A DNA stretch of 48,387 nucleotides, from contig JBOGJQ010000162.1 in the NCBI GenBank assembly GCA_050745405.1, forward strand, positions 1 to 48,387. Direction: 5' to 3'. Position numbers: made by a program. Of the stretch, positions 18,001 through 27,000 are shown piece after piece (within the stretch, counting starts at the first letter, position 1; every line of letters starts with the position of its first letter). The DNA is from Thermoanaerobaculia bacterium. GTDB taxonomy: Bacteria; Acidobacteriota; Thermoanaerobaculia; Gp7-AA8.

Positions 18001-21000
18001 GGGGAAGTGAGTGGAGCGATTCCCTCAACGAGATGCTGTGGGGCTACATCTTCGACATGGTCCATCACCGCGGCCAGCTCAGCTCCTACCTCCGGCCGAT
18101 GGGAGCGAAGGTCCCCGCGATCTACGGCCCCTCCGGCGACAGCGAGACCTGATCTACGCGGTCGCCTCTCTCAGCGCCGCCCGCGCGAGCGTCCGCGTCG
18201 AATCGAGCGTCGGGAGCGGCGAGTCCTCGTCGCCGATCAGCAGCGGGATCTCCGTGCAACCGAGAATGACGGCGTCCGCGCCGCGCTCCGCGCCGCGCGC
18301 GATGACTTCTCGAAAATACGCGCGCGCCGGCTCGTCGAATCGCCCGTAGACGAGCTCGTCGAAGATGATCGCGTCGATCCGCCGCCGCTCCTCCTCCGAA
18401 GGAAGGAGATGCTCGATCCCTCGCACGCCGAGCTTCGCCGGATACACCGGCCCCTCCATCAGATACTTCGTCCCGAGAACCAGCAGCCGGCGGAATCCGC
18501 GCTGCTCGGCCACCGCCGCGATTTCTTCCGCGATGTGGAGCCACGGCACTCCGGCGCGATCGCGCACGAGGTCGACTCCCTGATGGAGCGTGTTGTCCGG
18601 GCAGATGAGGACCTCGGCGCCGGAGGCGCGAAGGATCGCCGCCGAGGCGAGGAGCATCTCGCCGGTCGCGTCCCAGTCGCCGTCGTAGATGGGCCGCATG
18701 TAGTCGGCGAGCGGATACGTGTGCATCGTGATCTGCGGGTGCGCGTGGCGTCCCAGAACGGCGGCGCCCTCGGCGCAGATCGTCCGGTAGCAGAGCGCCG
18801 CCCCCTCGGCGCTCACCGCGACGATCCCAATGTGCTTCGAGGGGCGTGGCTCTTCTCGCGTCATCGTGCGGTGATCTTACGTCACGGCTCGCGCAGAACG
18901 AATGCCGGGTCGATCCGGCTGGTGCTGCCGAGGCATGTTTGCGTGGCATACTCGCGACAGGGAGTCGATCACGATGGACTATTTAGGGCTGGCTTTCGGA
19001 ATGATGGGGTTTTTGTTCGGCGTGATGAGCTACACGCGCCTCGACAAGCTGGAGAAAGAGCTGAAATCGACGGGCGTGCTGGAGCCGGAATTCAAATCGC
19101 TGTGAGGTCGGAGCCGGATTCGGCCCCGACCTCTTGCCGAGGACTACTCCGCCTCTTCGTCCTTGATCAGGAACGTGATCGTCCGCTCGATCGTGTCGGC
19201 CTTCGCGTCCGCGCGGTTCACCAGGCGGCCGCTCTTCCGGTCCTGCGTCCACCCCTGCATCGCATTGAACTGAATGAGGGGTTTGACCTCGTACTCGCCA
19301 CGATCGACGATCCACTCCGCGGGACCGGCGATAGCGAACTTGACGTCGTTCTCGGAGATCGCGTTGTCGACGCGCGCGGAGACGATCCGGATGTCGTTCT
19401 TTCCCGTCTTCAGAAACGGCGTGATCACGATCCCGCGCGAGCCGAGGATGAAGGTGTTCAGCGGCGTGCCGTTGACGAAGACGGTCGCGGTCACGGGAGA
19501 GTTCCAGCCGTCGTAGATCGACCTCCCCTGCAGGATGAAATCGCCCGCGCCGATCTCCCTCATTTCGTTCTCGAGACCGGCCCAGTAGGTCTTCCACGTC
19601 AGCGTGACTTCCTTCACGCTCGGCCCGAGAGGGTGGAAGTACGTCCCGTCGTCTCTGAGCTCCCAGTCCGTGTCGTTGCGGAACTCCCACAGGACCGGGT
19701 TCATGACGAACCCGCGCGAGTCCTCGTCGTGGTAGGCGGGGCCGATCCGGAACAGCAGACCGTTGTCGTTGTTGGCGGGCTCCTGCACGTACGTGCGCAG
19801 CGTGATCGTGTTCCAGCCGTCCTGGATGTAGTTCCCGACCGGCTCGAAGGTGTCGGAGCTGAAGATGTTGACGGTCTTCCCGTTGATCGCGAGCTCGCTG
19901 TGGAGCGGGTTGTCCCACGACGTGTACTCGCGCGCGACCCAGAGCATCAGCGCCCCGTCATCGAACTGGGGTCCGCCCGTCGAGGTGCGTGACGCGGAGG
20001 GACCTGCCGGGCTCTTCTTCTCGGCGGTCGTGGTCTTTGCGGCCTTCGCCGCCGCTTTCAGCTTGTCGAGGCCCCGCTTGAGGTCGCCAAACTGTGCCGA
20101 CGCCCCCACCGGAACGAGCGAGAGCAGGAACGCACACAAAATGATGGACGAAAGACGACGCATGGAATCCTCCCTTCGGTTCTAGCCGGATGAGTTCCCG
20201 GGAGAGGCGAGGCGTTACAGCGGGCGTAAAATGGCCGTTCCGCCATGAGAGCCGAAGAATCCCTACCGGAAGCGGGGGATCGCGATGGAGGACTGGTCGA
20301 GGAGCTGATCGCCTCGCTTCACGGCCGGTTCCACGATCGCGTCCGCGTGTTCGCCGCGCGCCGCCTCGGTGACGCGGCGGCCGCCGAGGACGTCGCGCAG
20401 GAGACGCTCCGGCGGGTCGTCGAGGCGCTCCGTGCGCGGCGCGTCGACGACCTCGCCGCGCTTCCCGCCTTCGTGTTCCAGACCGCGCGGAACATCTGCA
20501 TGCACCACGGCCGCGCGCGCCGCCGTCGCGACGCCGCCCTCGTCCGTTTCGGCACCGACACCATCGCGAGCGACGACCCGTTGGCCGACCTCGTCTCCGA
20601 CGAGCGCGCTCGAGCCGTCCGCGAAGAGCTCGCGCGCATGGATCCGGCGGATCGCGACCTCCTCGAGATGATCTATGTCGCGGAGCTCGACACGGCCGAG
20701 ATCGCGCGACGGTTCGGCGTCACGCCGGGAGCGCTCCGCGTCCGGAAGCATCGCGCGCTCGAGCGTCTCGCCCGGCGATTCGGCGCGATCGGAAACGAAT
20801 CGGATCCTGCGGGAACCCGGAGAGGGGAATGGTGAGCTCCACGAGTTGCGAATACCGCGATACGGACGTGGCCGCGCGTTACGTCCAGGGACGCCTCGCC
20901 GAGGATGAGGCGGAGCGCTTCGAGGCGCACTACTTCGCGTGCGAGGCGTGCTGGGCCGAGGTGCAGGGCGGCATCGCGCTGCGCGCCGCGACCTCGCGAC

Positions 21001-24000: not shown

Positions 24001-27000
24001 GCGCGCTCAGCTCGCGATCGCGCGCGACGATCCGTGGGGATCGGCGCGGCACTGGGCGGCGTTCTCGGTGATCGGCGATCCCGCGCTGACGGTCGCGCTG
24101 CCGGCGCGGCGGGAGGGGGGACGGGTGGTGGCTTTCGCCCTGGTAGGAGTGTTGATTCTCGCGGGGTGGTTGGCGATCAAAAAATGGGACCGATAGGACG
24201 GATGCGTCCCATCGGTCCCATCGGATCTTTTACGCCGGAACCCGAACCACCGACCGCTGATCGTTGCGCGTCCGGTTCAGCTTGAGCTGCGGGTTGAGCT
24301 TCTTGAGCTCGCCGACCGTCAGCCCCGCGTCCTTCGCGATCCGCGAGAGCGGCGTCGCCGGCGCGGCCGTCACCGATTTCGTCACGACCGGCGGCAGCGG
24401 CTCGACGTGGTCGAAGCCATACCGCGCGGGATCCTTCGCGATGCGCGCGGCGGCGATCATCAGAGGAACGTAGTCGCGCGTCTCGCGCGGCAGGCGATCC
24501 CAGATCCGGTAGTAGTCGGCGTCCTCGCCGCGCTCGGATCCGGTCTCCTGCCGCATGATGCGGCCGACGCGATTCTCCCCCGTGTTGTACGACGCGGCCG
24601 CGAGGTACCACGAGTCGAATCGATCGTGGAGATCCGAGAGATAGTCGAGCGCCGCGTCCGTCGCGCGCGCCGGATCGTTCCGTTCGTCGACGGCACGATT
24701 GATGTCGAGGCCGTACCGTCGCGCGGTCGGGGCGATGAACTGCCAGATCCCGGATGCGTCCGCCGAGGAGTAGGCCTTCTCCTGAAAGCCGGACTCGATC
24801 ATCGCGAGATAGATCAGGTCGCGCGGCATGTCGCGCTCCTCGAGCTTCGCGGTGATCATCTCCTCGTACTTACCCTGGCGGGTGAGAAAGCGCTCGAACT
24901 GATCGCGCTTGTCCGTCATGAAGCGCTCGACCCAGTAGTCGACGCGCGGATGATCGATGTTCGCGAGATCCCACTGGATCTGATCCGCCGCAGCCTCGGT
25001 CGCCGCCGTTTCCACGGCATCGCTGTCGAACGCCGCGAGAAAGGACGGAAGCTCAGGCTGCTGCAGCATCTCGGCGGCCTCGGCCGGAGTCGGCACGCGG
25101 TCTTCGGGCTGCTGATGGATGCCGGTGATCGCCGAAACCCCCAGAAGGCCGGCAATCGCGGCGTACCCGACGCGCGGCAGATGACGCCGCTGCGCTCGAA
25201 AAAATCGTTTGTGCATCAAGAAACCTCCTCGCTCGTTTGCCATGTACCCGGTAAAACGGATCGAGGGTGCTGTGTGTTTCCAAAATGACACGAATCGCAC
25301 TCTCCCGTCACGAGTTGCACGGATTTCGTGGACGAGATCCAAGATAGGGCGGAGCGCCCGAACGGGCGTTGAGCGCCGTCACAAATTCGCGACCGTCTTC
25401 ACTTTTCCGGGCGTACGGGTGAGGCCGCTGTGGCGCCGACGACGGTGGTCCAGGGGCGTACTTTCCAGGTGCGGACGAGGCCGTTGCGCACGTACGGATC
25501 GGCCGCGGCGAAGCGTTCGGCAGAAGCCGGCGAGTCGCCGGAGAAGAGAAGGATCGCGCCGTCGACCGGATCGCCGAGCGCTCCGCCGAGGATGAGCTCG
25601 CCGCGATCGTGCGCCTCCCAGGCGAGCCGGAGGTGCTCGGCCCGGAATGTGCCTCGCCGCTGGAGATAGTCGGGGGAGACGTCGTAGATCAGAAGGTAGT
25701 GCATGGCGGAATCCTATCAACGGACAACGAACAACGAACAACGAGCACGTGTTTACCAACGACCCGGCATCGCGTAACACGAGGAGAACGGCATGTCGGA
25801 AATGTCTTCGCGGTGGTCGCGCCTCGCAAGGCGGCTCTCTCTCAAGCCGTACGGCGATGAGCTGCTCACGCCGGGGGCGGACTTCTGGATCTTTTCGGCG
25901 CGGCTGATCGTCCTCACGATGGCGCTCGCGGAGGCGATCGCCTGGGGGTACATGGGCGCGCTGATGTCACGGTCGAGTCCACTCGCCGTCGCCGCCGTCG
26001 CGAGCCTCTTCATCTTCACCCTGATCTGGATCGTCGACGCGACGTTCATGACGCTCGATTTGTCGCGGGCCTTCTACGAGCGGGCTCTGCTCGGGAAAAA
26101 GGAGAGCCCCGCGAGGGAGAAGTTCCGGCTTGCGGGCGGCGTCGCCGCGCGCGTCGCGATCGTGTCGGCTTCGCTCTTCATCACCGCGCCGTTCCTCGCC
26201 CAGGCGATCTTCGCCAGCGACGTGAGCGACGAGATGACGCGCCGCAACGCGGCCGCCGTCTCGGCGAAGCGCGCGGAAATCGAGCGTCCGTTCCTCGCGC
26301 GACTCGAAACGCTTCGTGGCGAACAGAAAGGGCTCGAGGAAGAGCGCGTCCGCGAAGCGGCCGGCGTCGGTCTCTCCGGCCGGCACGGCCGCGGTCCGGC
26401 GCTCGAAACGATCGAGCTCCAGCTCGCCGAGAAGCGCGAAGAGATCGCGGCGGCCGGCCGCGCGCGGGGCGAGGCGCTCGCGCGATTCGACGCACTCTCC
26501 CGGCCCGAGCTCGAGCAGAAGCACGGCGTGAAGTTCCTCCAGGCCGGCGTCCATTCGAGCGGGCAGCTCCTCCGTGACCTGCTCGAGACGCCGGAGTTCA
26601 CCGGCGCCGAGCTCGCCGTGCGCGCCTTTCTGGTGTTCCTCTTTCTCGGCCTCATCATCCTGAAGCTCTTCCAGCCGCGCAGCGTCGCCGTTTACTACAA
26701 CGAGCAACTCCATAGCGTCTGGGGCGAGTACCGCAAGGGTCTGTTCGACGCGTACCTTCCGGAACAGGAGCGCCCCGGCGCCGGCGGCGGGATGGAGCCT
26801 CTCCGGTTCGAGGACTGGTGCATCCGGACGTACGCGATGATCCGCTCTGAGGATGCGCGGCGGCGCGAGACGGCGGCGGAGTCGCGGATCCACGATCTCC
26901 GCGTCGAGCAGTGGCAGAGGCTCGCGGGGGCGGCGCGGGAGGAGCTCGATCCTCTCGTGCGGCAGCGCGATGCAGTCGTGGTCGCGATCGAAGAGCTCGA

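Follow-up and report, generated by a model that had tools for sequence, protein, structure and literature searches.

A predicted exported TPR-CHAT protease encoded with an ECF sigma factor and a zinc-type anti-sigma factor in Acidobacteriota and Gemmatimonadota

The window examined in this study is a 48,387-nucleotide stretch of DNA from a Thermoanaerobaculia bacterium (GenBank assembly GCA_050745405.1, contig JBOGJQ010000162.1, positions 1 to 48,387 of the forward strand), namely contig C162 of a metagenome-assembled genome of 3.9 Mb that is 97% complete and has about 68% G+C. Three consecutive genes on its plus strand encode an extracytoplasmic function (ECF, group 4) sigma factor of 196 amino acids (20245-20835), a single-pass zinc-type anti-sigma (ZAS) factor of 190 amino acids (20829-21401), and a predicted exported, membrane-anchored protease of 932 amino acids (21398-24196) that combines tetratricopeptide repeats (TPR) with a CHAT domain. 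As read from the sequence, the sigma and anti-sigma genes overlap by 7 nt (20829-20835), and the anti-sigma and CHAT genes by an ATGA (21398-21401). On the minus strand, an open reading frame (ORF) for an exported 339-amino-acid protein of an uncharacterized family with two weakly similar modules, hereafter p339 (19144-20163), is separated from the sigma gene by 81 nt (20164-20244), and this intergenic region holds a candidate promoter-like element of 26 nt (20194-20219, minus strand) whose motif and spacing are conserved beside sigma genes. ORF calls, Pfam searches, and structural models located the four ORFs, both overlaps, and all domains that a preliminary description of the locus had claimed.

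Translational coupling links the three plus-strand genes, and they have been inherited together in two phyla. Adjacent sigma, anti-sigma, and CHAT genes were found in two genomes of the same family (L023 and L024), in one of another family of the class (L033), and on a metagenome contig (L043). The sigma alignment was then used to search 185,579 species genomes, which yielded 13 loci whose sigma orthologue was at least 49% identical. These belonged to Thermoanaerobaculia or other Acidobacteriota and, in at least eight cases, to Gemmatimonadota; the triad was present in 12 of them, and the exception lies on a short contig. In total, the three-gene synteny, on which the preliminary description had made its proposal depend, occurred in at least 15 other genomes of the two phyla, Acidobacteriota and Gemmatimonadota, and the ZAS domain and the TPR-CHAT were on separate proteins in all 16 loci examined.

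By its matches to Pfam Sigma70_r2 (36.3 bits), Sigma70_r4_2 (45.2 bits), and TIGR02937 (77.3 bits, cut-off 42.9), the 196-amino-acid protein is a standard ECF (group 4) sigma-70 factor. All NCBIfam subfamily models scored far under their own cut-offs against it, and its orthologues in Thermoanaerobaculia and Gemmatimonadota were 49-58% identical.

The second protein is a ZAS-type anti-sigma factor, as judged from an HxxxCxxC motif in a helical N-terminal domain and from the position of its gene adjoining the sigma gene, and it is predicted to bind zinc and the sigma factor. The motif residues H34, C38, and C41 (20928-20951) were invariant across 15 homologues, and the match to Pfam zf-HC2, at 21.6 bits, was slightly under the gathering score of 22.2. 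In an AlphaFold2 model with a predicted local distance difference test score (pLDDT) of 84, a three-helix N-terminal domain is followed by a membrane helix at residues 72-91 (about 70-91 in our annotation, 21036-21101), by a linker at residues 92-107, which is the sole low-confidence stretch and lies between the membrane helix and the outer domain, and by a beta domain of eight strands at residues 108-188 (21150-21392) with pLDDT above 90. Foldseek matched this beta domain to FN3 domains with target-normalized template-modelling scores of 0.55-0.65, bearing out the FN3-like ectodomain postulated earlier. A profile search with the ectodomain against 1.8 billion proteins was set aside; it was swamped by giant FN3-repeat proteins and shows the generic FN3 type only. 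In an alignment of 15 anti-sigma sequences, Arg99 (21123-21125) was the only invariant residue from the zinc motif to the FN3 core; it was followed by Gly, Ser, or Ala, and the surrounding positions were otherwise variable. An Arg-Gly after the membrane helix was also seen in the anti-sigma proteins of L023 and L024. Several clan CD enzymes, among them separase, gingipain R, and metacaspases, typically cleave after an arginine (the P1 position). Its conservation within a linker modelled as disordered makes Arg99 a candidate cleavage site.

The 932-amino-acid protein matched Pfam CHAT (PF12770) with E = 8.9e-61 and 206 bits, and several TPR families as well. Its AlphaFold2 model (pLDDT 88.5, predicted template-modelling score 0.83) comprised a signal-like helix, a TPR-like helical-repeat superhelix of about 500 amino acids (residues 22-536, plus strand), a CHAT alpha/beta fold at about residues 555-893 (Pfam match 609-894, 23222-24079), and a terminal helix at residues 907-931. 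When this model was submitted to Foldseek, the top match was DdvA of Myxococcus xanthus (E = 8.5e-16), followed by separase and Csx29. Similarly, when a family profile was searched against PDB sequences, DdvA was the sole CHAT-bearing chain among the best 60 matches listed (E = 3.3e-16). Searches of PDB with the whole protein sequence were discarded because they were swamped by TPR designs, the CHAT region alone gave only marginal matches to Csx29 and separase among PDB sequences, and the match to the Csx29 NCBIfam model was weak. The putative catalytic dyad, His760 (23675-23677) and Cys806 (23813-23815), was invariant in all 16 CHAT orthologues, and among 45 family members Cys806 was invariant and His760 nearly so. 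Given the invariance of both residues in the 16 orthologues, an active enzyme is predicted to be kept under selection. Its fold, family model, and His-Cys dyad place the protein among the clan CD caspase-like CHAT proteases, with protease activity predicted.

Topology was called from hydropathy, AXA and lipobox motifs, and the models. The N terminus of the CHAT protein, MRGAAAAVVLLALAGAALA followed by ATPERL, resembles a Sec signal carrying an AXA site, giving a predicted signal peptide of residues 1-19 (21398-21454); by hydropathy, the hydrophobic stretch extends over residues 3-21 and ends in ALA/A. At the other end, the helix at residues 907-931 (24116-24190), which is followed by KKWDR, is a predicted membrane anchor. 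A second hydrophobic stretch, at residues 687-705, was rejected as a membrane helix, being a buried core beta strand in the model. The C-terminal helix was likewise rejected as a sortase or exosortase signal, since no LPXTG or PEP precedes it and the sortase gene of the window has its own adjacent substrate gene. Among the orthologues, a lipobox (for example LVAC, VVAC, LLSC, or IAAC) was found in at least seven Gemmatimonadota proteins, the Thermoanaerobaculia proteins had Sec-type hydrophobic N termini, and, by motif and hydropathy together, at least 12 of the 16 carried a signal peptide or a lipobox. The C-terminal helix was present only in the window genome, L024, L052, and L057. Export of the CHAT protein thus appears to be general, with the membrane tether provided in two ways, by a C-terminal helix here and by a predicted N-terminal lipid anchor in Gemmatimonadota. 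These Sec and lipoprotein signals make a periplasmic CHAT domain the best prediction, in agreement with the preliminary description, which had placed it outside the cytoplasm; a cytoplasmic placement was not found. In the model, the CHAT domain ends about 13 residues ahead of the protein's own membrane helix, so its active site should be near the membrane.

A promoter search of the region between the sigma and p339 genes, as advised in the preliminary description, turned up the conserved 26-nt element. It reads TGTAACG-N13-GGGAAC on the minus strand, where it ends 30 nt ahead of the p339 ATG with a GGGAGGA ribosome-binding site in between, and GTTCCC-N13-CGTTACA on the plus strand, where it ends 25 nt ahead of the sigma ATG. 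The same motif with the same spacing was seen beside the sigma gene first in L023, L024, and L033 and, in the wider survey, in 10 of the 13 sigma loci, two more of which had close variants. A strict copy occurred once in the window genome. In 41 related genomes there were 15 matches versus 3 for a reversed control pattern, and 8 of the 15 were in the four genomes with a sigma orthologue; 12 further sigma-bearing genomes gave 16 matches versus 4 for the control. The element was at first favored as a classical autoregulatory promoter of the sigma gene, because CGTTAC resembles the -10 element of ECF promoters and because the motif accompanies the sigma gene. That reading was dropped, since six extra sites (L046, L048, L132, L133, L138, and L139) had a downstream gene only when read as TGTAACG-N13-GGGAAC. 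At five of these six an ATG lay 5-45 nt past GGGAAC and began a product with a signal peptide, and at the sixth, L048, the orthologue of the product in genome G017 has a signal peptide. The overlap of the sigma ATG with the end of the element in L054 and L059 was also counted against a sigma-ward reading. Two pairs of orthologous target genes (56% and 63% identity) from different genomes both retained the element, and the element-associated targets elsewhere were mixed exported proteins, including CsgG-like, SH3, CARDB, BNR, and DUF4864 proteins and unknowns. TGTAAC resembles ECF -35 elements and GGGAAC is not a typical -10; the order is reversed in the sigma-ward reading. Taken in the orientation of the six extra sites, the element is probably a target promoter of the sigma factor that reads toward p339, the strand being assigned from gene positions. 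It may act bidirectionally and also drive the sigma operon. As for other regulon members in the window genome, three relaxed matches were found, none in a promoter position, and homologues of the element targets of other genomes were absent from it.

Two side observations concern the element. In a Gemmatimonadales locus (L062:6543-6568), a second copy, oriented toward the anti-sigma and CHAT genes, is situated where the sigma and anti-sigma genes meet, 3-9 nt upstream of the anti-sigma start. On two short contigs of a Gemmatimonadota genome (G047; L135:450-475 and L136:1261-1286), the motif sits within nearly identical flanks, which points to a repeated element rather than to two promoters of independent origin.

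The divergent gene product, p339, has a signal-like N-terminal segment by hydropathy, and its two halves are weakly similar (23% identity over 81 residues, pairwise E = 2e-5). Its strongly conserved family comprised 128 homologues of at most 66-68% identity from Acidobacteriota and Planctomycetota and had no Pfam domain and no sequence relative in PDB; some species have it as a fusion with an M48 metalloprotease or with a VWA domain. For two homologues, both located on long contigs, no ECF or CHAT gene was found nearby. A role for p339 as a conserved fourth member of the module was rejected, as tblastn detected none in the syntenic loci and it was absent from 15 other sigma-bearing genomes. 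The earlier suggestion that p339 is the regulon target therefore holds in part: the element is oriented toward the gene, and the same absences show that p339 is not a conserved partner. It is plausibly a genome-specific candidate target of the sigma factor. In p339's place, the gene divergent from sigma in L023 (8476-9438) and L024 (10327-11298) encodes an exported protein of 320-330 amino acids, that of L023 being CsgG/LpoB/FlgT-like, with the element 22-42 nt upstream.

We then compared the locus with known systems, of which DdvS/DdvA of M. xanthus, described in 2024, is the closest. In DdvA, a ZAS anti-sigma factor and a periplasmic TPR-CHAT form one fusion protein (PDB 8rot and 8rw5), and the authors of that study suggest that a signal triggers self-cleavage in trans between the subunits of a dimer, with the flexible linker after the membrane helix as the target, followed by the action of RseP (PMC11506125). 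According to the same authors, fused proteins of this type are confined to some Myxococcota and one Comamonas (PMC11506125). Both systems pair an ECF sigma factor with a single-pass zinc-type anti-sigma factor and a TPR-CHAT of about 900 amino acids that has a His-Cys dyad and is periplasmic, here by prediction. DdvA, however, is one polypeptide of ZAS domain, membrane helix, and TPR-CHAT, whereas the locus described here encodes two proteins from genes joined by an ATGA, the TPR-CHAT has its own signal peptide and membrane anchor, and the anti-sigma ectodomain is a small FN3-like domain. Consequently, any cleavage here would be between two different proteins and not within a homodimer. The two systems also differ in promoter motif (TGTAACG-N13-GGGAAC versus GTAA-N16-CGT for DdvS), in candidate targets (exported proteins versus CBASS/CRISPR genes), and in hosts (Acidobacteriota and Gemmatimonadota versus Myxococcota). 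The preliminary description had set the locus against CHAT effectors known from the cytoplasm only; that contrast is outdated, as a periplasmic CHAT with an anti-sigma factor is known in DdvA. The literature searched contained no description of an exported TPR-CHAT that is a protein of its own and whose gene accompanies those of a sigma/anti-sigma pair. Relative to that literature, the separate-protein CHAT would be new, and a periplasmic CHAT joined to an anti-sigma factor was already known.

More distant parallels were found in three other settings. Craspase consists of Cas7-11, the TPR-CHAT protein Csx29, Csx30, and the CASP-sigma/RpoE of type III-E CRISPR. There, too, a TPR-CHAT protease of related fold cuts an inhibitor functionally linked to an ECF-type sigma factor, cutting being only proposed for the present proteins; unlike them, Craspase belongs to a CRISPR effector, resides in the cytoplasm, and needs guide and target RNA for its activation, and cas genes are lacking here. 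RseA/DegS/RseP and RsiW/PrsW/RasP are alike in the proposed logic of a periplasmic site-1 cut, an M50 site-2 cut, and sigma release. In such classical regulated intramembrane proteolysis the site-1 enzyme is a serine protease or a metalloprotease encoded elsewhere, whereas the candidate here belongs to the clan CD cysteine proteases and has its gene within the operon itself. Finally, the genomic context of ECF54 includes CHAT, subtilase, and carboxypeptidase genes, and proteolytic control without an anti-sigma factor has been proposed for it (PMC8999054). A CHAT gene is conserved beside an ECF sigma gene in both cases; unlike in ECF54, a conserved ZAS anti-sigma gene lies here between the two. 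The main text of the ECF classification paper does not mention CHAT.

On these grounds, we tentatively interpret the three genes as a three-component envelope signaling module, a split form of DdvS/DdvA in which the CHAT protein controls the anti-sigma factor; we regard this as a serious possibility that falls short of being probable. The composition of the locus, the gene coupling and synteny, the predicted location of the CHAT domain, its dyad and modelled nearness to the membrane, Arg99, the presence of an RseP homologue, the DdvA precedent, and the recurrence of such a module at the genome's other CHAT gene (contig C442, below) are all consistent with it. The M50/RseP homologue is encoded elsewhere in the genome (PF02163, 222 bits, C25:3778-5001). 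In the mechanism we propose, the TPR array would sense a periplasmic signal, probably a protein or peptide, and the CHAT domain would act on the anti-sigma factor, the likeliest action being a site-1 cut in the juxtamembrane linker at or near Arg99-Gly100. An RseP-type site-2 protease would then cut within the membrane and release the sigma factor, and the free sigma factor would transcribe from TGTAACG-N13-GGGAAC promoters, the only such site in this genome facing the p339 gene. In its specific form, in which the stand-alone periplasmic TPR-CHAT is the site-1 protease in trans and cuts after the invariant arginine when its TPR binds a ligand, this proposal has to be called doubtful.

Several points weigh against it. 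Cleavage of the DdvA linker by CHAT itself has only been proposed (PMC11506125). One metagenomic sigma/anti-sigma pair, on a 5.3-kb contig, had no adjoining CHAT gene. The two phyla differ in which end of the protease carries the tether and the L023 orthologue has no clear anchor, so the near-membrane geometry of the CHAT domain is not general. In addition, no separate autoregulatory promoter was seen for the sigma operon. The element is unique in the genome, so that the CHAT protein could be the output of the operon and not its trigger.

This last reading is the strongest alternative, and we consider it rather unlikely, if still to be reckoned with. The FN3 domain or another factor would be the sensor, the sigma factor would raise its own operon, and the protease would act on envelope or exported proteins, its substrates perhaps including those exported proteins encoded behind the same element. 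Many ECF operons carry effector genes, and the single element in the genome would mean a tiny regulon. The second element copy of L062, placed directly upstream of the anti-sigma and CHAT genes, also favors this explanation, as does the observation that every other gene behind the element codes for an exported protein. The stop/start codon overlaps with the anti-sigma gene and the near-invariant adjacency in two phyla, however, fit a stoichiometric partner better than an output. Moreover, paralogous modules keep CHAT by genes for a sigma factor and a membrane protein despite changed gene order, and CHAT is constant whereas the targets differ among genomes.

That the CHAT protein is instead a non-cleaving, RseB-like partner appears improbable. 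TPR arrays are protein-binding scaffolds, and here the array would shield the FN3 domain or the linker from another site-1 protease until displaced by a ligand, while the protease activity would serve another purpose or act on the CHAT protein itself only. Tight gene coupling agrees with such a partner, and the periplasmic domain of DdvA does sterically block RseP (PMC11506125); nevertheless, if the module had no need of catalysis, the invariance of the dyad across all 16 orthologues would be difficult to account for, and the conserved locus contains no other candidate site-1 protease gene. Very improbable, lastly, is an anti-phage or conflict sensor that turns on defense genes, as the sole characterized relative, DdvA/DdvS, does with a CBASS/CRISPR island (PMC11506125): the CHAT protein gave weak PADLOC matches to generic TPR and BovA models, but PADLOC detected no defense genes among eight locus proteins (four of the module and four neighbors), on which a defense island was rejected, the neighbors are housekeeping or unknown by Pfam, and the element-linked genes encode assorted exported proteins.

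The value of the split arrangement lies mainly in what it offers as a model. The work on DdvA left two questions, namely whether CHAT cuts the anti-sigma linker and what the activating signal is. Here the protease is a different protein from its presumed substrate, so each can be expressed, mutated (C806A, H760A, or R99A), and mixed alone, and the candidate element with its short target list provides a ready reporter; the system would hence be a more tractable model for the DdvA question. If the trans cut after the arginine is real, the two separable proteins would also permit a direct biochemical test of a kind to which the fused DdvA has not lent itself. To our knowledge, ECF signaling is almost unexplored in Acidobacteriota and Gemmatimonadota, which are poorly studied soil phyla. 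If the proposed cleavage is true, the CHAT protein would provide the first demonstration that a clan CD protease can initiate regulated intramembrane proteolysis, and caspase-like proteases would join the enzymes that trigger sigma release across a bacterial membrane.

CHAT genes are multi-copy in the family containing the window genome, with up to seven per genome. A sigma factor or sigma-like ORF was near CHAT in 10 of 21 CHAT loci, in varying gene orders and usually with a single-pass membrane protein, and several of the sigma-like proteins were too divergent for Pfam. The only other CHAT gene of the window genome (contig C442, L027:485-4874) comes after ORFs for a weakly sigma-like protein, again too divergent for Pfam, and a single-pass membrane protein; each of the genome's two CHAT genes is thus in a module of this type. 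In two Gemmatimonadota loci (L054:132-284 and L059:913-1053, both minus strand), a small divergent gene of about 50 codons lies beside the sigma gene, and its peptide contains KVKGG, like a double-glycine leader. This gene was rejected as part of the module, because it was confined to these two loci and was absent from the window and the other loci.

Downstream of the module, a hairpin with an 18-bp stem (24183-24222, assigned to neither strand), made of 9-bp units, lies over the CHAT stop codon, with a T-run 3' of it on the minus strand and a convergent SLT transglycosylase gene across it. Because of this hairpin and the gene it faces, the operon is taken to end at the CHAT stop; the hairpin is probably a bidirectional terminator common to the CHAT operon and the transglycosylase gene. 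The neighboring genes are unrelated and, by Pfam, housekeeping or unknown, including those for a sortase, a racemase, YciI, a DUF4407-like protein, and a phosphoesterase. At 15750-17127 of the window, a gene for an exported protein of 239 amino acids is followed by the sortase gene, in a genome that is otherwise diderm-looking.

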